This document shows, in pieces, positions 12,828 through 56,414 of a stretch of DNA of 64,000 nucleotides. Under the pieces are notes generated by a model. That model had not been told where the DNA came from, did no database searches, and saw only the letters and a list, made by a program, of their open reading frames with translations. The DNA comes from an uncultured Acidobacteriaceae bacterium (lineage in GTDB: Bacteria; Acidobacteriota; Terriglobia; Terriglobales; Acidobacteriaceae). The DNA lies in the NCBI GenBank assembly GCA_963770235.1, contig CAVYOW010000003.1, forward strand, positions 4,706 through 68,705. The letters are read 5' to 3'. Position 1 is the stretch's first letter. Each line of letters opens with the position of its first letter. The position numbers were made by a program, and so were the translations under genes.

Positions 12828-13717
12828 ATGCATATGACGGCGCCATGGTCGAGAGTGTCGTTTACGGTGCTCGACATTCTGCTGGTGGCGTTGATCATCT
12901 ACGAAGTGTTGGTGATGATCCGGGGGACGCGGGCGGCGCCGATGCTGGCGGGGCTGGCGGCGGTGGCGGCGGCGTTTCTATCTGGCGCGAATTGGCGAAT
13001 TGGTTACGTTGAACTGGCTGGTCAGCCATTTGCTGCCCTATGTGGTGTTTGCGTTGATTGTGGTGTTTCAGTCGGAGATCCGGCATGTGTTGTCGGATGT
13101 GGGGCGGCGGGTCAGCTTTTTGCGCGGGCCGGCGGTGGAGGGGGATTCGTATGACGACATTGTGCTGGCGGCGAATTTATTTTCGCAGCATCAGACCGGC
13201 GCTTTGATTGTGATTGAGCGCGAGATTGGGTTGCGGACTTATGTAGAGAGCGGCGTGGCGATGGACGCGCGGCTTTCCTACGATCTGCTGGCCACGATTT
13301 TCCGGCCGAGCGCGCCGCTGCACGATGGAGCGGTGATCATCCAGAAAGGACCGGTTGGCGGCGGCGGCGTGTTTTTTGCCGCTGTCGATGAATCCGGTGC
13401 TGTCGACGCAGATGGGGACGCGGCATCGGGCGGGCATCGGCATCACGGAGGAGACGGACGCGATCGCAGTGATAGTTTCGGAAGAAACGGGCGCGATCAG
13501 CATGGCGGTGGGGGGAAAGATTGAACGGGATTTGACGGTGGAACAATTGCGCGAGCGGCTGAGCAGCGAGCTGCGGCGGTATATGTCGCCGGTGGCGTTG
13601 CCGACGGTTGGGCCAGCGGAGGATGAGCCGGATGGGGGTGAGGGATCGCCGCTGCGGGCGGGCGCGCAGATGAGTGCTGACGAGGAGTCTGCGCCGGAAA
13701 CGGAGCGCCCGCTATGA
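12828..13717 (+). CDS. cdaA: diadenylate cyclase CdaA, two frameshifts (~12976, ~13348) as sequenced
   Basis: N-terminal TM helices (12828 frame). The DAC domain LHDGAVII (13000 frame) continues as RHRAGIGITEETDAIAVIVSEETG (13355 frame). Each break is repaired by deleting one base of a short homopolymer. Confidence 0.88.
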
Positions 13718-14590: not shown

Positions 14591-15970
14591 ATGAGCACTC
14601 AGATCAGACAATTGTTTGGAACCGACGGGATACGCGGCGTGGCCGGGGAATTCCCGCTGACAGCGGAGAGTACTTATCTGATCGGGCGGGCGCTGGGACA
14701 CGATCTGATCCGCGGGACGCGAAGGGCGCTGGCGGTGATGGGGCAGGACACGCGGGAATCGAGCGGGTGGATTGCGGACCGCGTGGCGGCGGGGCTGGCG
14801 TCGGTGGGTGTGGAGGTGCACAGCGCGGGCGTGATCACGACGCCCGGAGTTGCGTACCTGGCTCGGGCGCGGGGGCTTGCGGCGGGAGTGGTGATCTCGG
14901 CTTCGCATAATCCGTGGACGGATAACGGGATCAAAGTTTTTTCCGGGGATGGATTCAAGCTGACGGATGCGCGGGAGCTGGCGATTGAAAAAGAAATCTT
15001 CGAGCTGCTGGCGAAACCGGGGGCGCTGGACGATACCGCGCTGAGAGTTGCCGGGCCATCTTTGCCGGGAGAAGCGGAGCTGCGGAAGGCTTACATTGAG
15101 TGGCTGGCGGGGAGTGTGTCGTCTGACCTGAGTGGGTTAAGGGTGCTGGTGGACTGCGCGAATGGGGCGGCTACGGCTGAGGCTCCGGAATTGTTTCGCG
15201 GCTTGGGAGTGCGGGCGACATTTATTCATGTGACGCCGGATGGGAAAAATATTAATGAGGAGTGCGGGGCGCTGCATCCTGAGACCTTGGGTGGGACCGT
15301 GGCCGGGTCGGGAGGGAAGTTTGATCTGGGCGTGACGTTTGACGGGGATGCTGATCGGGCCTTGTTTTGCGATGACGCGGGCCACGTGGTGAACGGGGAT
15401 GGAGTGCTGCTGCTTACGGCGCGGGATTTGCAGGCACGCGGGAAATTGAACGGATCGACGGTTGTGGCTACGACGATGTCGAATATGGGAGTTGAGATTG
15501 CTCTGAAGAAGGCGGGCATTCGCACGTTGCGGGCGAATGTTGGCGATAAGTATGTTCTGGAAGAGATGCTTAGGACTGGCGCTACCTTGGGCGGGGAGCA
15601 ATCGGGACATATTATTTTTCGCGATGGCGACGCTACTACTGGCGACGGTCTGCTGACTGCCTTGCGGGTGATGGATGTGATTGTGCGTTCGCGGAAGACA
15701 CTCGCTGAGCTGGTTGGCGATTTGAAAGTTTTTCCGCAGAAGATTCAGAATGTGCGAGTGCGGGAGAAGATTCCGTTTGCTGACGTGCCTGAGGTGCAGC
15801 GGGCGATTGAGGCGGCTGAGCGCGAGTTGGGTGGGAATGGGCGGGTCGTGGTGCGGTATTCGGGGACTGAGGCTTTGGCTCGGGTGATGGTGGAGGCGGA
15901 GTCGGAGGAGCGGATGCTGGCGCTTACTGCGGGGATTGCGGGGGAGATTCAGAAGGCCTTGGGGGTTTAA
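14591..15970 (+). CDS. glmM: phosphoglucosamine mutase
   Basis: Intact 459-aa ORF with GTDGIRG, active-site SASHNPWTDNGIK and GEQSGHIIF. Confidence 0.95.
   Translation: MSTQIRQLFGTDGIRGVAGEFPLTAESTYLIGRALGHDLIRGTRRALAVMGQDTRESSGWIADRVAAGLASVGVEVHSAGVITTPGVAYLARARGLAAGVVISASHNPWTDNGIKVFSGDGFKLTDARELAIEKEIFELLAKPGALDDTALRVAGPSLPGEAELRKAYIEWLAGSVSSDLSGLRVLVDCANGAATAEAPELFRGLGVRATFIHVTPDGKNINEECGALHPETLGGTVAGSGGKFDLGVTFDGDADRALFCDDAGHVVNGDGVLLLTARDLQARGKLNGSTVVATTMSNMGVEIALKKAGIRTLRANVGDKYVLEEMLRTGATLGGEQSGHIIFRDGDATTGDGLLTALRVMDVIVRSRKTLAELVGDLKVFPQKIQNVRVREKIPFADVPEVQRAIEAAERELGGNGRVVVRYSGTEALARVMVEAESEERMLALTAGIAGEIQKALGV
15877..15970 (+). repeat. direct repeat copy 1 (the last 94 nt of glmM including the TAA stop)
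   Basis: 90/94 identical to 16656-16749. Confidence 0.95.
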
Positions 15971-15977
15971 GGAAGGC

Positions 15978-16310
15978 TCACTCAAAAATGGGCGATGTCC
16001 TCGCCAGTACCTCTTCCATGATTGCGTCTGGAATGCTTTCCAGCTTCCGACCGCCGCGCGCGGCGAGATCGAGAGCGCGGGGCTGGTCGCAGCGGATAAT
16101 CCCTGTCGTTTTGAGTCCGGCTCCCGTCAAGGGCACGGCGAAACCAGCCACGCGCGCGAAATTACCGCCGCTCGTAATGGGCAGAACTACGGGGACTTTG
16201 GTGACTCGGTTGAAAGCGTCCGGGGAAACGATCAACACCGGGCGGCGGCCCCTTTGCTCGTGGCCCGAGGTGGGATCGAGACTTACGAGCCAGATTTCGC
16301 CGCGCTTCAT
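15978..16310 (-). CDS. mazF: MazF/PemK-family endoribonuclease toxin
   Basis: MKRGEIWLVSLDPTSGHEQRGRRPVLIVSPDAFN...VVLPITSGG...CDQPRALD is a typical MazF/ChpB fold signature. Confidence 0.9.
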   Translation of the reverse strand: MKRGEIWLVSLDPTSGHEQRGRRPVLIVSPDAFNRVTKVPVVLPITSGGNFARVAGFAVPLTGAGLKTTGIIRCDQPRALDLAARGGRKLESIPDAIMEEVLARTSPIFE

Positions 16311-16344
16311 TACTGGTTCCCCGCTCGTTCCATCCTGCGTTCCG

Positions 16345-16602
16345 TCAGATGAGTTCTCCGCCGACGGGCTTGCTATTGAGCCATTCTCGTTGTTGTTTCG
16401 GGCGACGCGCCTTGGGGTCGCACTGGGCCAGCAGTTCGTTCAGGGTATAGCGTGGGCGCTGCCTTGGCTCCACGACGAGACGGCCGCTCTCAACTGCGAT
16501 GCCGACCCGGGCGCCGGGCTGCAGTTGCAGGACGTCGAGCAGCGCGGGCGGGACGGCCAGCATGACCGAGCCGCCGACTTTCCGCAGGTTGGTGGTGTGC
16601 AT
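16345..16602 (-). CDS. mazE: MazE/ChpS-family antitoxin (SpoVT/AbrB domain)
   Basis: TTNLRKVGGSVMLAVPPALLDVLQLQPGARVGIAVESGRLVVEP. AAGGAG lies 9 nt upstream of the ATG. The TTATA-N6-TATAA palindrome at 16620-16635 overlaps -10-like hexamers. Confidence 0.85.
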   Translation of the reverse strand: MHTTNLRKVGGSVMLAVPPALLDVLQLQPGARVGIAVESGRLVVEPRQRPRYTLNELLAQCDPKARRPKQQREWLNSKPVGGELI

Positions 16603-16655
16603 TGGGGTTCTCTCCTTAGTTATATTCTAGTATAACATGGGCACCGGATGACTAT

Positions 16656-16749
16656 GGCTCGGGTTATGGTGGAGGCGGAGTCGGAGGAGCGGATGCTGGC
16701 GCTTACGGCGGGGATTGCGGGGGAGATTCAGAAGGCCTTGGGGATTTAG
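16656..16749 (+). repeat. direct repeat copy 2 (orphan copy of the glmM 3' end, ending in TAG)
   Basis: Would encode ..ARVMVEAESEERMLALTAGIAGEIQKALGI*, but has no upstream gene body. Confidence 0.95.
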
Positions 16750-16806
16750 GCGCTGCAACGCCTCGCTGCGCTTGGCTGGACAGCCGAGGCGGCTGTCCCC
16801 ACATGA
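16749..16806 (+). repeat. REP-B copy
   Basis: GGCGCTGCAACGCCTCGCTGCGCTTGGCTGGACAGCCGAGGCGGCTGTCCCCACATGA, immediately 3' of polA. Confidence 0.8.
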
Positions 16807-16818
16807 CCTTGCTGCACG

Positions 16819-19614
16819 CTAGTCCAGATCTCTCCAGTTCGGGCCTACTTCCATTTCTACTAGCAGCGGGACCGCTAGGGCGTGAACGTTTTCCATTTGC
16901 TCACGCACTAACGACTGCATGGTTTCCACTTCTTTTTCGGGGACTTCGAAGACTAGTTCGTCGTGGACTTGCAGGGTCATCCTTGATTTCAGTTTCTGCT
17001 CTTGCAGAGATGCGTCGATTCGGATCATGGCTACTTTGATCAGGTCCGCTGCCGTGCCTTGCAACGGAGTGTTTACGGCGGTGCGCTCGGCGAAGCCGCG
17101 TTGGGTGAAGTTTTTGCTGTTGATGTCGGGGATGGGGCGGATGCGGCCGTGGAGAGTCCTTACTTTCAGATCGCGGCGGGCTTCTTCGAGCGTTTTGTCG
17201 ATGAAGGTACGGACGCCTTTGTATTTTTCGAAATAGTTTGCGATGAAGAGTTTGGCTTCGGCGGGCTCGATGCCTAGATTCTGCGAGAGGCCGAAGGCGG
17301 AGAGGCCGTAGACTATGCCGAAATTTACTACTTTGGCCTGGCGGCGGTGGTCGGGCGTGACCATTAGCGCCGGGACTCCGAAGACTTGGGAGGCGGTCAG
17401 AGTATGGATGTCGTCGCCGCGGCGGAAGGCTTCCACCAGGAGTGGATCGCTTGAGAAGTGGGCCAGCAGGCGGAGTTCGATCTGCGAGTAGTCGGCGGTT
17501 AGGAGAACGTGGCCGGGTTCGGCGATGAAGGCGGCGCGGATGCCGCGACCCAGTTCGGTGCGGACGGGAATGTTTTGCAGGTTCGGATTGGCGGAGGAGA
17601 GGCGGCCCGTTGCTGTGCCTGCTTGGTAGAAGGTGGTGTGCAGGCGTCCGGTGGAGGGGTTGATCAGCGCGGGTAGAGTGTCGACGTAGGTGGACTTCAG
17701 CTTGGTTAGCTGGCGGTAGTCGAGAACTTTTCTGGCGATGGGATGTTCTTCCGCCAGAGCTTCGAGGACGTCTACGGCGGTTGAGATGGTGCGTCCCTTG
17801 CCGTATTTCACGGGCTTGGGAAGATTCAGGCGGTTGAAAAGGATGTCGCCGAGTTGCTTGGGAGAACCGATGTTGAATTCGGTTCCGGCGAGCTCGTGAA
17901 TGTTCCTGGCTTGAATTGCGATCTCGCGTTCGAGTTCGGTCGACATTTTCGCAAGCGCGGCGGTGTCGATTTTTACTCCGGCCTGTTCCATGCGGGCTAG
18001 AACTGGGACTAGCGGTAGATCTATTTCTTCGTAGAGCTTGGTTAGTCCTGCCTGTTTTACGTCTTCTCGCAGCGCCGTTGTCAGCCTGCCGGTCAGGTCG
18101 GCGGCTTCGGCTAGATCGCCGCTTATCTTTAGATTGAAACGGCGGAGGGCTACGTCCGCGAGGCGATGGGAGGAATAGGTGGGATCTAACAGGTAGGAGT
18201 AGAGCATGGGATCGTGCTGTACACCTTGCAGATGGATGCCTTGGGAGTCCAGCGCGTGGATTGCGGCTTTGTAATCGTGAATTGCTTTGGATGTGGCTGC
18301 GGTGGTCAGAATTGAACGAAGGGTTGTCGCGGCGCTCGCCGGAGTCCAGCTTCACAATTAGGGCGGAACCTGCGGCCGAGGAGATGGCGATGCGGCGGGC
18401 GGCGGGCTCGGGCGTAGGCGCTGGGGACGATGCATCGGTGAGTGCGAGCATTCCGGACTGCAGGACTTCTTCGATGACTTCTTCGTCACTTTCTGGAGGC
18501 GACTTCTGTCTCTTCCAATTCCACGGCGATGGCTAGGGCGGCCTCCGTCATGACGGAGTTGAGGACGCTCTCTACATCTGCGGCGGATTGGGCTTCGCTG
18601 TAATGGGCTTCGGTGACCTGAGCTTCGGGCAATAGTTCTTTCAGCAACGATGTGAATTCCAGTTCGGTGAACAGCTGGCGGAGTAGATCGAGATCGGGAT
18701 TGCCGGCGCGCATGGCTTCGACATTCAGCTCGACGGGGACGTTGGTGTCGATCGTCGCCATGCTTTTGCTGAAGAGGATGGTGTCGCGATTGTTCTGGAG
18801 GGATTCGCGGTAGGTTTTCTTTTCTACTTCGTTGGCGCGGTCGAGAGCCTGCTCGACGGTTCCGAAGCGCTTGATGATTTCGACTGAGCCCTTGTCGCCG
18901 ATGCCGGGGGCTCCGGGGATGTTGTCGACCGAGTCTCCGCGGAGGGCCATGATGTCGACTACGCGTTCGGGTGGGACTCCGAGAATTTCTTCGACTTTGG
19001 CGGCGTCGCAGATGAGATTGTCTTTGGGGGGATTCAGGATGTGAACATCGTCATTGACGAGTTGCATCATGTCTTTGTCGCTGGAGACTACGTAGACGGG
19101 ATGCCTTGGCGGCGGCGGCTTTGCGGGCCAGGGTGCCGATTACGTCATCGGCTTCGAAGCCGGCTAGCTCGAGGATGGGGATGCGATAGGCTTCGAGGGC
19201 GCGGCGGATGTAGGGAATCTGCTGGGCGAGGTCCTCGGGCATGGCGGCGCGGTTGGCTTTGTAGCCTTTGTATTCGACCTCGGTGAAGGTTTGAGTTTTG
19301 ATATCGAACTTGCGGATGGTGGTGATGGCTTCGGCTTGCGTCGCGCGGTGAGTCTTGGCGGCTACGTCGAAGACAGCGGCTAGATAGTTGGGGGAGAAGT
19401 CGTCACGCAGTTTGCGGAGCATGTTGACGAAGACATAGATGGCGGCGGTGGGGAGCCCGGATTTCGTGGACATGGAGCGCTGGCGGGCCATGGCGTGGTA
19501 GGCGCGGAAGATGAACGACATGGTGTCGATGAGGAAGATGCGGTCTTCGGCGTCCGGCGCTCGGGGAGGCGTGGGTTGGGATTCGGGTTGCCGGGACTTT
19601 GTTGGCGGGGACAA
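16819..19614 (-). CDS. polA: DNA polymerase I, three frameshifts (~19075, ~18490, ~18320) as sequenced
   Basis: 5'-nuclease domain in ORFs 19051-19614 and 18486-19070 (SSDKDMMQLV, GIGDKGS). The exo-like linker is in the 18451 frame. The polymerase domain is in ORF 16819-18207 (DYSQIELR, QVHDELVFE). Each break equals a one-base insertion. Confidence 0.93.
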
Positions 19615-19660: not shown

Positions 19661-19745
19661 GGCGCTGCCACACGCTCTCGCTGCGCTCGGCTGGACCCTT
19701 CGGCTCCGCTGAGGGCAGGCAGCCGAGGCGACTGTCCCCACATGA
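19661..19745 (+). repeat. REP-B copy (with a ~25-nt internal insertion)
   Basis: GGCGCTGCCACACGCTCTCGCTGCGCTCGGCTGGAC...GGCAGCCGAGGCGACTGTCCCCACATGA, immediately 5' of polA. Confidence 0.8.
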
Positions 19746-38899: not shown

Positions 38900-40382
38900 T
38901 CATGCAACGATGCGATTGAGAGCCGCCACCACCGCCGCGTCCTGTTCCGGAAACACCGTCCGCAAATCGAGCAGCACGCGGCCTTCTTCGACCCGGGCAA
39001 TGATCGGCGGCTCTGAACCGCGCAGGCGCGCGGCCAGTTCGTCAGCACTCAGGCCCTCGCAAGTCAGCGCCAGCACGCGCGTGGGCAAAGTGGACGATGG
39101 CGCAGCGCCGCCGCCGAGGATCGATTCGCCATCCACGATTTCAACCTTCAACTTCGGAGTTGCAACCCGCGCCGCCAGCGCATCAGCCCGCTTGCCGATT
39201 GCATCTTTCGAAAGCCGCATCATGCGTAGCGTGGGAACCGCATCGTGATCCTTCTGCACATACGCAAGAAGAGTCGCTTCCAGCGCGGCATAGATCAGCT
39301 TGTCCACACGCAACGCCCGGAACAGCGAGTTCGCTCGCATGCGCGCGATCAACTCCGAACCACCGCTGATCAGCCCTGCCTGCGGGCCGCCGAGCAGCTT
39401 GTCTCCGCTGTAGGTGACGATGTCGACGCCGTTGCGCAAGCTGTCCAGCACGCCGGGCTCGCCGTTGATGCCGACCGAGCGCAGATCAAAAAGCGCGCCG
39501 CTGCCCAGGTCTTCCATCAGCGGAATGCCGCGCTGGCGTGCCAGCACCAGCAGTTCCGCCGTAGAAGCCTGTTCGGTGAAGCCCGTGATCTCGAAGTTCG
39601 AACGGTGTACTCGCAGCAGCAGCCGCGTCCGTTCGGTGATGGCGCGCTCGTAGTCGGCGGTGCGCGTGCGGTTGGTCGTGCCCACCTCGCGCAGGATCGC
39701 ACCCGACTTGGCCATCACGTCGGGAATCCGAAACGACCCGCCGATCTCCACCAGCTCGCCGCGCGAAACAATGACTTCTCCGCCCTCCGCCACGGTATTC
39801 AGCGCCAGCAGCACGGCAGCCGCATTGTTGTTAACCACGATCGTGGAAACATCGCTGTGTGGAGACAGCCGCCTCGGCTGTCCCGCCTGGGCGAAGCCCA
39901 GCGGCTTCCGTCCGAGATCCCGTCCCAAGCATGTCACTGCTCAGCAGCTTGCGAAATAGGCGGTCCACGTGCACATCCCGCTTGCCGCGAGCGCCGGCAC
40001 CCAGGTCAAACTCCAGATTGGAATAGCTCGCCGCGGTCTCGCGGATGTGATCGATCGCTGCATCGCCCAGCGGAGCGCGGCCAAGGTTGGTATGCAGGAT
40101 CACGCCGGTGGCGTTGATCACCGGCCGCAGAGAATAACCCAGCGCCTGGCGAAGTTGATTCTCCACCGCTCCCGCCAGACCGGAGAGCGCAAGCTCCAGC
40201 GCCGCCTCGTCCAGCAGCCCCGATGTAATCTCCTGCCGCAACCGGGACAGCACGACGCGCGCCGCATCCACCACGGATTCTTGGCCGTAGCTCGCCGCCA
40301 GCGAGCAAACCGCGAGGTCGTGGGTCACCTCATCCACGGAAGGCAGCTTGCGAAAAAGTTCCGACGGCGCAGCAGTTTTCAC
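38900..40382 (-). pseudogene. selA: L-seryl-tRNA(Sec) selenium transferase, interrupted by an 82-bp repeat insertion
   Basis: The N-terminal half is in ORF 39831-40382 (..[31 protein letters not shown]). The C-terminal half is in ORF 38900-39937 from ..[16 protein letters not shown], with GGSFRIPDV and SGDKLLGGPQAG. The halves are in different frames and are separated by a REP-B copy. Confidence 0.88.
39851..39932 (-). repeat. REP-B copy inserted inside selA
   Basis: The minus strand reads ATGCTTGGGACGGGATCTCGGACGGAAGCCGCTGGGCTTCGCCCAGGCGGGACAGCCGAGGCGGCTGTCTCCACACAGCGAT. The 3' 28 nt match the other REP-B copies almost exactly. Its 82-nt length is not a multiple of 3. Confidence 0.8.
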
Positions 40383-55214: not shown

Positions 55215-56414
55215 TTACTGATTCGCCCGCCTGAAGCAGATATCGCCGGTCGTGGTTCGAACCTTCAGGACGGGACCGCCCCCGTTCAATTTGCCTTCCG
55301 CAGTGAGCGTCCTCGGACCCCACTTGTCGCCTTCACTGGCGACGTGAATGTCGGGGAAGTCGGAAGTGATGTGGTGCCCATTGCCCAGGTCCACGCTGGC
55401 GCGCACGTTGATCGCAACATCCGCCGCGATATAAACGGTAATGTCTCCTGCAGAGGTCTCGAGCGTGGAATCGCTGGGCGGAGCCCCGGTCTTTACGAAC
55501 TTCACGACGATGCCACCGGCTCCAGTCTCAACCCGTGCCGAGGGAACCCCGTAGAGTTCGATGCCACCGCCACCAGTGTGGGCCTCGACGTGACCTTTGG
55601 CGGACGCAAGGTGGATGCTGCCCCCGCCGGTCTCAATGTCAGCCGCCCCGGCAATGTCTCCCAGGTCGATGCTGCCGCCGCCGGTTTCCGCCTTCACTTT
55701 GCCGGTGCACTGGCGAACCTCAATTCCTCCGCCCCCAGTCTCAATGCTGGCGCCCTGCGTAGCCGAAATAATCTCGATGCTGCCGCCCCCGGTCTCCGCG
55801 GTGATTTTCCCATTGGCGTGATGCACCTCAATCGAGCCGCCGCCGGTATGTAGGCCAATATCGCCGGTGATGGTCCCCACATCGATGGATCCGCCACCGG
55901 TTTCTGCGCTGGCGCCTCCGCCGATATCATCCAGGTGCATACTGCCGCCGCCGCTTTCCGCCTCCACGCGGCCAGCAACTCCAGTGGTATCGATGTTGCC
56001 GCCTTCGGTTTCGATCTTCACCAGGCTGATCTCGCGCGGGACATGGATGGCAAATTCGCCTGAGAACTTGCGCGGCCGCCCGCCCTCCCACTCGCCCATG
56101 ATCCACGCCGTGTCTCCCCGCACGTAGGCATTGACCTTGTAAGACTCGAACTGGTGCCGCGCGTCTTGTTCTGACGAAGTATAAGAACGAGTATGAACGA
56201 CGTAACGGATGCCCTGCTCCGACCCGCCTTTGACGATCACTGAACCCACATCTACTTTGACCCGCAAGGTTTTTACCGCGGCCAGCGAACCGTTGACTTC
56301 CTGACTCCAGACTCCGCCTCCATCACGGGAAATGTGTGCTTCCTGCGCCCCTGCCAATGGCGCAAACAGAGCCAGCATGCAAAGCAAGCCGGCGAATTGT
56401 GGCGAACGCTTCAA
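55215..56414 (-). CDS. DUF4097-type beta-helix repeat protein (putative adhesin)
   Basis: Signal peptide, then about 9 repeats of (E)TGGGSI(E/D)... with an 18-aa period. Confidence 0.8.
   Translation of the reverse strand: MKRSPQFAGLLCMLALFAPLAGAQEAHISRDGGGVWSQEVNGSLAAVKTLRVKVDVGSVIVKGGSEQGIRYVVHTRSYTSSEQDARHQFESYKVNAYVRGDTAWIMGEWEGGRPRKFSGEFAIHVPREISLVKIETEGGNIDTTGVAGRVEAESGGGSMHLDDIGGGASAETGGGSIDVGTITGDIGLHTGGGSIEVHHANGKITAETGGGSIEIISATQGASIETGGGGIEVRQCTGKVKAETGGGSIDLGDIAGAADIETGGGSIHLASAKGHVEAHTGGGGIELYGVPSARVETGAGGIVVKFVKTGAPPSDSTLETSAGDITVYIAADVAINVRASVDLGNGHHITSDFPDIHVASEGDKWGPRTLTAEGKLNGGGPVLKVRTTTGDICFRRANQ

Follow-up and report, generated by a model that had tools for sequence, protein, structure and literature searches.

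Why does the 3′ end of glmM, the gene for phosphoglucosamine mutase, occur twice, with a toxin-antitoxin pair enclosed between the two copies, in a 64,000-nucleotide stretch of DNA from an uncultured Acidobacteriaceae bacterium (contig CAVYOW010000003.1, positions 4,706 to 68,705; hereafter, the window)? The original prediction made for this locus had noted that the last 94 nt of glmM recur downstream and proposed that a very small cassette had been inserted, or left behind, at an attachment site in the 3′ end of the gene. The duplication itself was confirmed. Identity is 90/94 when 15877-15970 is compared with 16656-16749, and a repeat search of the window extended the direct repeat to 97 nt (15873-15969 and 16652-16748), of which 93 positions (96%) are identical. 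The glmM-tail pair is the sole long dispersed two-copy repeat of such kind within the 64 kb, and the probability that it arose by chance is negligible. We consider it likely that the repeat is a recombination scar, left when mazEF-bearing and mazEF-less alleles of the locus were joined by one homologous and one illegitimate exchange.

The working glmM gene (14591-15970, + strand) is an intact open reading frame (ORF) of 459 amino acids with four PGM/PMM Pfam domains, and its product is 70-90% identical to GlmM of 80 Sulfotelmatobacter/Terriglobia metagenome-assembled genomes (MAGs). Copy 1 of the repeat, as located by the repeat search (15873-15970, + strand), is the 3′ tail of this gene, spans its final 32 codons and the stop, and abuts mazF. 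Copy 2 (16652-16749, + strand; 93/97 to copy 1) includes a TAG stop and reads as the displaced former tail of glmM. Between the copies there are mazF, mazE and their putative operator, and nothing else; ORFs and domain matches bear out the earlier statement that these two genes, on the opposite strand, are the only ones enclosed. An identical structure, with the same variant bases, is carried by four independent assemblies (L083/L107, L086/L106, L108 and L109; here and below, loci and contigs are given by our own numbers). Two of the bases that set copy 2 apart (G in ACGGCGG and A in GGGGATTT) are states present in sister strains and in other species. If the A at 16654, on the junction edge, is set aside, only one change (GTT) is private to copy 2, which looks like a circulating allele rather than a decayed relic.

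The mazF gene (15978-16310, - strand) encodes a Kid/PemK-type toxin of 110 amino acids, which matches PF02452 over its full length (E 2.4e-29) and, over 108 amino acids, shows 70% identity with the Kid toxin encoded by plasmid R1 (PDB 1m1f; E 2.6e-51); NCBIfam ChpB/MazF matches to the toxin are under cut-off. The stop codons of mazF and glmM face each other tail-to-tail, 7 nt apart. The mazE gene (16345-16602, - strand), located 34 nt upstream of mazF, encodes an antitoxin of the MazE/Kis/ChpS type of 85 amino acids with an AbrB-like N-terminus. Its PF04014 score of 24.5 bits is marginally under the cut-off of 24.7, its NCBIfam matches (MazE, E 9e-17; ChpS, E 1.5e-13) are both under their cut-offs, and comparison with MazE chains in the PDB gave E values from 7e-5 to 2.5e-4. 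The position of mazE is kept in all relatives, and support for the assignment is therefore moderate from sequence and strong from position and conservation. PADLOC defence models returned zero matches for MazE or MazF. The whole 681-bp module matches more than 4000 plasmids annotated as pemIK/mazEF, at 60-66% identity at the DNA level. Because of these plasmid matches and the similarity of the toxin to Kid, we assign the module to the Kis/Kid type (PemIK, MazEF superfamily) of type II toxin-antitoxin systems, here in a chromosomal setting.

The Kis/Kid pair (parD of plasmid R1) is the same as PemI/PemK of R100. The module of the window resembles it in the toxin, in the AbrB/MazE-type antitoxin, in the antitoxin-first gene order and in the presence of a putative palindromic operator at the predicted promoter. 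It differs in being chromosomal and in lying 7 nt behind an essential gene, where it is conserved across many Acidobacteriota species.

The control region of mazE (16603-16637, - strand) was delimited from sequence and is conserved in an alignment of five species. Two of the elements that the original prediction had placed upstream of mazE are present: the Shine-Dalgarno sequence AAGGAG (the reverse complement of 16612-16617) and the TTATA palindrome, which is an operator-like element of 18 nt, GTTATATTCTAGTATAAC, at 16619-16636, kept in all homologous modules and overlapping a TGnTATACT motif. In every carrier, homology of the module runs from the mazF stop (TCACTCGAATAT) to GTATAACA, just beyond the palindrome, which in the window places its end at 16637; past GTATAACA, at least eight unrelated right flanks occur among the carriers. 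The reverse complement of GTATAACA, TGTTATAC, consists of TGn followed by TATACT, and the corresponding TGtTATACT (the reverse complement of 16629-16637) is a putative extended -10 element that overlaps the operator-like palindrome. A scan for σ70 promoters revealed no -35/-10 pair in the mazE control region, a result that is consistent with, and no proof of, a promoter that would need no -35 element. Such a promoter would account for the tolerance of any DNA upstream and for a module that is self-contained up to the TG.

Since the interpretation of the repeat depends on how the locus is organized elsewhere, we compared the region between glmM and polA in relatives. Of the roughly 590 glmM loci in the clade, a GlmM search yielded 80, which belong to MAGs of Ca. 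Sulfotelmatobacter and of other Terriglobia. In 43 of the 80, polA lies convergently downstream of glmM. In these 43 species the spacer is 30 to 3380 bp long, with 150 bp or less in 11 and more than 500 bp in 19, and the cargo seen in it consists of chrA (alone or accompanied by doxX), mazEF, and genes for an LGFP-repeat protein, a TPR protein and a DUF4238 protein. Among the loci of this search, mazEF was present in the spacers of L002, L005, L007 and L017. Look-ups of close MazF homologues added about 20 more loci, from two further species groups (L110-L119 and L120-L129), and the order glmM, 7 nt, mazF, mazE, variable DNA, polA was seen in all of them. The alignment of the glmM tail into mazF is unbroken between species, and the glmM-7 nt-mazF junction is found together with the whole module, free of any duplication, in L110-L119 and L120-L129 (80-86% nucleotide identity) as well as in L002, L130 and L132. 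Because the module occurs collinearly and duplication-free in other species, its location behind glmM must be old and common, and the claim of a recently inserted mini-cassette is not supported.

It also follows from the contiguity with mazF in multiple species that copy 1 is the tail that belongs with mazEF; the working gene thus has a replacement tail, as had been supposed. On the glmM tree, species with and without mazEF are interleaved, with mazEF-bearing L002 sister to the empty L004, and L005 to L003. Judged from these comparisons, the spacer is hypervariable, a hotspot of gene turnover that has often, and for a long time, housed mazEF. In none of the 43 spacers was the polA tail found to be duplicated.

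Empty sites with a single copy of the tail, which the original prediction had advised looking for, were found in L001, L004, L011, L013 and L016. In the window, copy 2 is followed by GCGCTGCAAC and then by a hairpin unit resembling repetitive extragenic palindromes (REP; 16750-16806, + strand, core GGACAGCCGAGGCGGCTGTCC; four copies in the window versus 0 expected), and the very same succession comes directly after the glmM stop in the mazEF-less L001, L004 and L016. There is no glmM-like DNA upstream of the remaining REP copies (p 0.5-0.95), so the contiguity of the glmM tail with the REP unit must be ancestral and not a property of REP. For the same reason, the possibility that the last 15-20 nt of glmM are a component of the REP unit was rejected. 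Because of the collinearity with mazEF-less sites, the block made up of copy 2, the REP unit and polA (16819-19614, - strand) is best taken as the right half of an empty-site allele.

Contigs of closely related strains were found by exact-protein look-ups; over the ybbR-glmM-mazEF side they are 96-99% identical to the window. To the right of the palindrome, these near-identical strains split into three types. In type A (the window, L083, L086, L108 and L109), the module is followed by a junction segment X (GGGCACCGGATGAC; 16638-16651 in the window, no strand assigned) and then by CTATGGCTC, which runs into the glmM tail. In type B (L085, L087 and L088), X and CTATGGCTC are followed by TTCGTTTTGCAACC, by only the last 15 nt of glmM, and then by REP, with 14 nt between X and this glmM remnant. 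In type C (L081 and L082), homology ends at 16637 and a DUF4238 gene comes next. Segment X was seen in type A and type B strains only. The sequence in which X continues, CTATGGCTC, coincides in part with the beginning of copy 2, and its counterpart in glmM is CTTTGGCTC. As can be seen from this comparison, copy 2 is bounded on the left by a microhomology of 6 nt, TGGCTC, shared by the flank of mazE and position -97 of glmM, and such an edge fits illegitimate rather than site-specific joining. Identity of polA to the window is 94-96% or lower, versus 98-99.7% on the left side, a fall that indicates recombination breakpoints between mazE and polA. The intergenic DNA diverges by about 16% between type B strains. 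A metagenome scan for the operator joined to X (GTATAACATKGGCACCGG) retrieved 15 unrelated chance matches only.

The junction also happens to supply an in-frame ATG, with which copy 2 reads as an ORF of 31-33 codons (16648-16749, + strand; MTMARVMVEAESEERMLALTAGIAGEIQKALGI). A gene of 31 amino acids has been called on copy 2 in L083 and L086, and an identical peptide is found on four contigs (L106-L109). The ORF lacks an obvious ribosome-binding site; in all likelihood it is an accident of the junction and not functional.

A second duplication of a glmM tail was detected in L007, where 43 nt of the species' own tail recur 1.4 kb 3′ of the stop. From the duplicate onward, L007 is collinear with L017 (from glmM position -43 through mazFE) at 84% identity. 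On this alignment, L007 is an L017-like arrangement that has received, at glmM -43, a 1.4-kb insert made up of an LGFP-repeat gene and a new tail for glmM. We regard it as a second, independent case with matching architecture, different cargo and a different boundary. Tail duplications were thus found in two (the window and L007) of the 81 lineages examined.

Taken together, these results show the three features that a scar of this kind should leave. One flank of the duplication is collinear with other alleles while the other ends abruptly at a joint with microhomology, which on its own is of low significance; the displaced tail is still contiguous with its former downstream DNA; and independent events (compare L007 with L017) differ in joint position and in cargo. 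One partner would be an allele whose glmM is directly followed by mazEF, the other an allele in which the REP hairpin and polA come directly after the glmM stop. The homologous exchange would have taken place in glmM or in REP/polA, and the illegitimate one at TGGCTC, where sequence immediately ahead of the predicted mazE promoter would have been joined to position -97 of glmM of the other allele. As an outcome, the working glmM would retain the tail linked to mazF, and the tail of the other allele would be stranded past mazE. Physically, this could proceed by homology-facilitated illegitimate recombination (HFIR) of a linear fragment or by circularisation followed by a single RecA crossover. 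Should the empty allele have entered via a polA/REP anchor, the event would be a replacement that failed to delete the toxin-antitoxin pair. Cells that lost the antitoxin gene or its promoter would die, so survivors would be expected to keep the module intact, with joints just outside the promoter; selection by toxin addiction would thus explain why the breakpoints hug the module.

Recombination of both kinds has precedents. HFIR or single-crossover integration in E. coli yields partial duplications of the anchor of 109-950 bp (PMC3240628). HFIR, for which de Vries and Wackernagel 2002, Prudhomme et al. 2002 and Meier and Wackernagel 2003 are the sources as cited in PMC5361080, has been put forward as the origin of displaced gene tails and of orphan immunity genes at type VI secretion system (T6SS), rhs and contact-dependent inhibition (CDI) loci (PMC5361080). 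The locus of the window resembles the products in both of these reports in having one collinear homologous side, one joint with microhomology and a partial anchor duplication flanking extra DNA. It differs in that the process is deduced here from natural variants only and in that the partners would be alleles of one locus, not foreign DNA. There is a similar likeness to the C-terminal displacement described, in the account given by PMC5361080, for rhs, CDI and T6SS effector-immunity loci (Jackson et al. 2009; Kirchberger et al. 2017), where an incoming module brings a new 3′ end and the old end is pushed downstream as a repeat-sharing orphan. In our case, the gene is a housekeeping enzyme with a functionally invariant tail, the cargo is a type II toxin-antitoxin pair and not a secreted toxin with its immunity gene, and there is a single orphan and no array. 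The feature belongs to a known kind and adds an example to it: a Kis/Kid module whose variable spacer also bears a probable recombination scar. It is a clean natural one, in which the states before and after the event and its variants have all been sampled.

Several observations weigh against the recombination scar or leave its course ambiguous. Judged from sequence, either allele could be the donor, and type B could have given rise to type A or have arisen from it by deletion. The 6-nt microhomology is weak when taken alone, and the similarity in register a few bases further to the left falls short of significance (p about 0.07). At the strain level, exact GlmM or YbbR look-ups found no mazEF-less allele and returned only short contigs of the known types, and the nearest empty sites belong to other species, with GlmM identity of about 90%. 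Finally, contig L084 (1092 bp) contains the last ~105 nt of glmM and mazFE joined to 322 nt of unrelated DNA, for which no Pfam match and no protein homologue were found and which is unlike anything else retrieved. This contig is mosaic at its other end too, and it ends at the palindrome, so that its right flank is hidden. L084 may be chimeric; otherwise it would mark a second junction, close to glmM -105, and would hint that the tail and mazEF can travel as a unit. We also considered whether type B is a decayed form of a longer glmM copy; local alignment against shuffled sequences gave p of about 0.07 for L085 and was not significant for L087, and this possibility was not substantiated.

The reading put forward by the original prediction is that a very small cassette, or the relic of a larger island, entered an attachment site in the 3′ end of glmM. 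A cis-mobilizable cassette of this sort would have used an attB site there with a tyrosine or serine recombinase supplied in trans, and the 97-mers would be attL and attR. Integrase-less elements flanked by att sites, known as cis-mobilizable elements (CIMEs), do exist. The locus shares with them, with other islands at gene 3′ ends and with Tn7 at attTn7 behind glmS the position of cargo at the 3′ end of a conserved gene, the direct repeats and the restored reading frame, here through the replacement tail. The empty sites in relatives, the second glmM-tail duplication in L007 and L084, which may show the tail and mazEF elsewhere, are in keeping with it as well. Yet, unlike at those sites, no recombinase or transposase is present: the reported absence of an integrase nearby was confirmed in the window and in syntenic loci, and zero integrase or transposase genes were found in the glmM-polA interval of the 43 species and some 50 further loci. 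Most carriers have mazEF at the identical position without repeats, and the left junction resembles microhomology joining. The expectation that the same boundaries would recur with different cargo was not borne out either: the repeats measure 97 nt in the window, 43 nt around the LGFP cargo of L007 and ~15 nt in sister strains, and any tail duplication at all is confined to the two lineages mentioned above. A literature search for glmM as an integration site yielded nothing relevant, the matches concerning truncated glmM beside sul2. In the lack of a recombinase, of constant boundaries and of repeats in most carriers, the site-specific explanation fails, and we hold it to be improbable. What stands of the original prediction is thus the displaced original tail, the replacement tail and the empty sites; the attachment site and the integration hotspot are not supported. 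More generally, the duplication of a gene tail need not mean an att site.

Alternatively, copy 2 could date from the original arrival of mazEF behind glmM in the common ancestor, having been homogenised against copy 1 by gene conversion in this lineage and lost elsewhere. The glmM-mazF junction is old, type B retains a short relic at the corresponding place, and of the four sites at which the copies differ, one has the copy-1 base in copy 2 of L083, possibly through conversion. However, this explanation demands that the relic was lost in every other mazEF-bearing species sampled, basal lineages included, and that a perfect REP junction was retained amid fast-diverging intergenic DNA. Furthermore, two of the variant bases of copy 2 match sister-strain alleles and not decay. 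An ancient relic of this sort is, in our estimate, a rather poor prospect.

Still another possibility is that the glmM tail and mazEF form a self-homing cassette, which would excise as a circle by RecA-mediated exchange between the repeats and enter mazEF-less relatives by homology, with a stretch of an essential gene serving as its homing arm. Repeats of 97 nt at 96% identity are of sufficient length for RecA exchange. The cassette would need no recombinase of its own, toxin addiction would block its removal, and L084 (with its boundary at -105 versus -97) would be a second landing, a set of assumptions that we find decidedly unlikely to be correct. Single-crossover integration is known to yield such a product (PMC3240628), and the patchy distribution of mazEF on the glmM tree and the possible extra junction of L084 are in line with the proposal. 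Against it, the second repeat is missing in most carriers, so that no such excision would be possible in them; neither a circular junction nor a strain-level empty site turned up; and L084 is a mosaic contig of 1.1 kb without backing from other data. If true, self-homing would provide toxin-antitoxin genes with a recombinase-free route of spread.

A local tandem or segmental duplication, or an assembly artefact, unrelated to the cargo, is barely credible in spite of the indel errors in the window's assembly, since no relative has a duplicated tail without cargo (the cargo-free tandem duplication that the original prediction had named as refuting it), copy 2 abuts the ancestral downstream REP and not a copy of mazF, and the structure and variant bases common to the four independent assemblies exclude an artefact. 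A transposon or insertion sequence was rejected, as there is no transposase ORF and the module ends (TCACTC... and ...GTATAACA) do not form inverted repeats; to our knowledge, a repeat of 97 nt is also far beyond transposon target duplications. An integron was rejected for want of attC-like sites.

If the recombination scar is the correct reading, the locus shows accessory genes entering, and being locked between, two essential genes without any mobile-element machinery, and a toxin-antitoxin unit that stays intact to the last base of its predicted promoter while its surroundings are exchanged.

Other cargo of the glmM-polA spacer was recorded along the way. The chromate transporter gene chrA, sometimes accompanied by doxX, is found there in six species (L003, L005, L006, L008, L009 and L010), and in L005 it occurs together with mazEF. 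Type C strains and other species have a DUF4238 gene in the same orientation directly next to mazE on its polA side (L104:3577-4281, L105:3318-4193, L130:8001-8963 and L132:8001-8939). The DUF4238-mazEF neighbourhood is recurrent, and the DUF4238 protein has no PADLOC match.

The four REP-like copies of the window are located at 2755-2828, 16750-16806, 19677-19745 and 39863-39883 (the last on the - strand), with the core GGACRGCCGAGGCGRCYGTCC followed by CCCACATGA. Two of them flank polA in direct orientation. A second type of hairpin, GTCGGACAGGAGTGTCCGACCCACAC, is present in relatives.

The neighbours xseA, cdaA, ybbR, glmM, polA, a hypothetical gene and CDO are shared by the window and the syntenic loci. 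Compared with the polA of L085, which is intact, that of the window contains three 1-nt insertions (at ~19109, ~18503 and ~18340) and is split into three ORFs recognized by their Pfam domains; cdaA is likewise split by single-base insertions at 12978 and 13344 relative to near-identical contigs. These five insertions are most likely indel errors of the assembly rather than signs of pseudogenes. Elsewhere in the window, at 55614-56021, there are imperfect G+C-rich tandem repeats with a periodicity of 54/108 nt and units 61-72% identical to one another, which probably encode a repeat protein.

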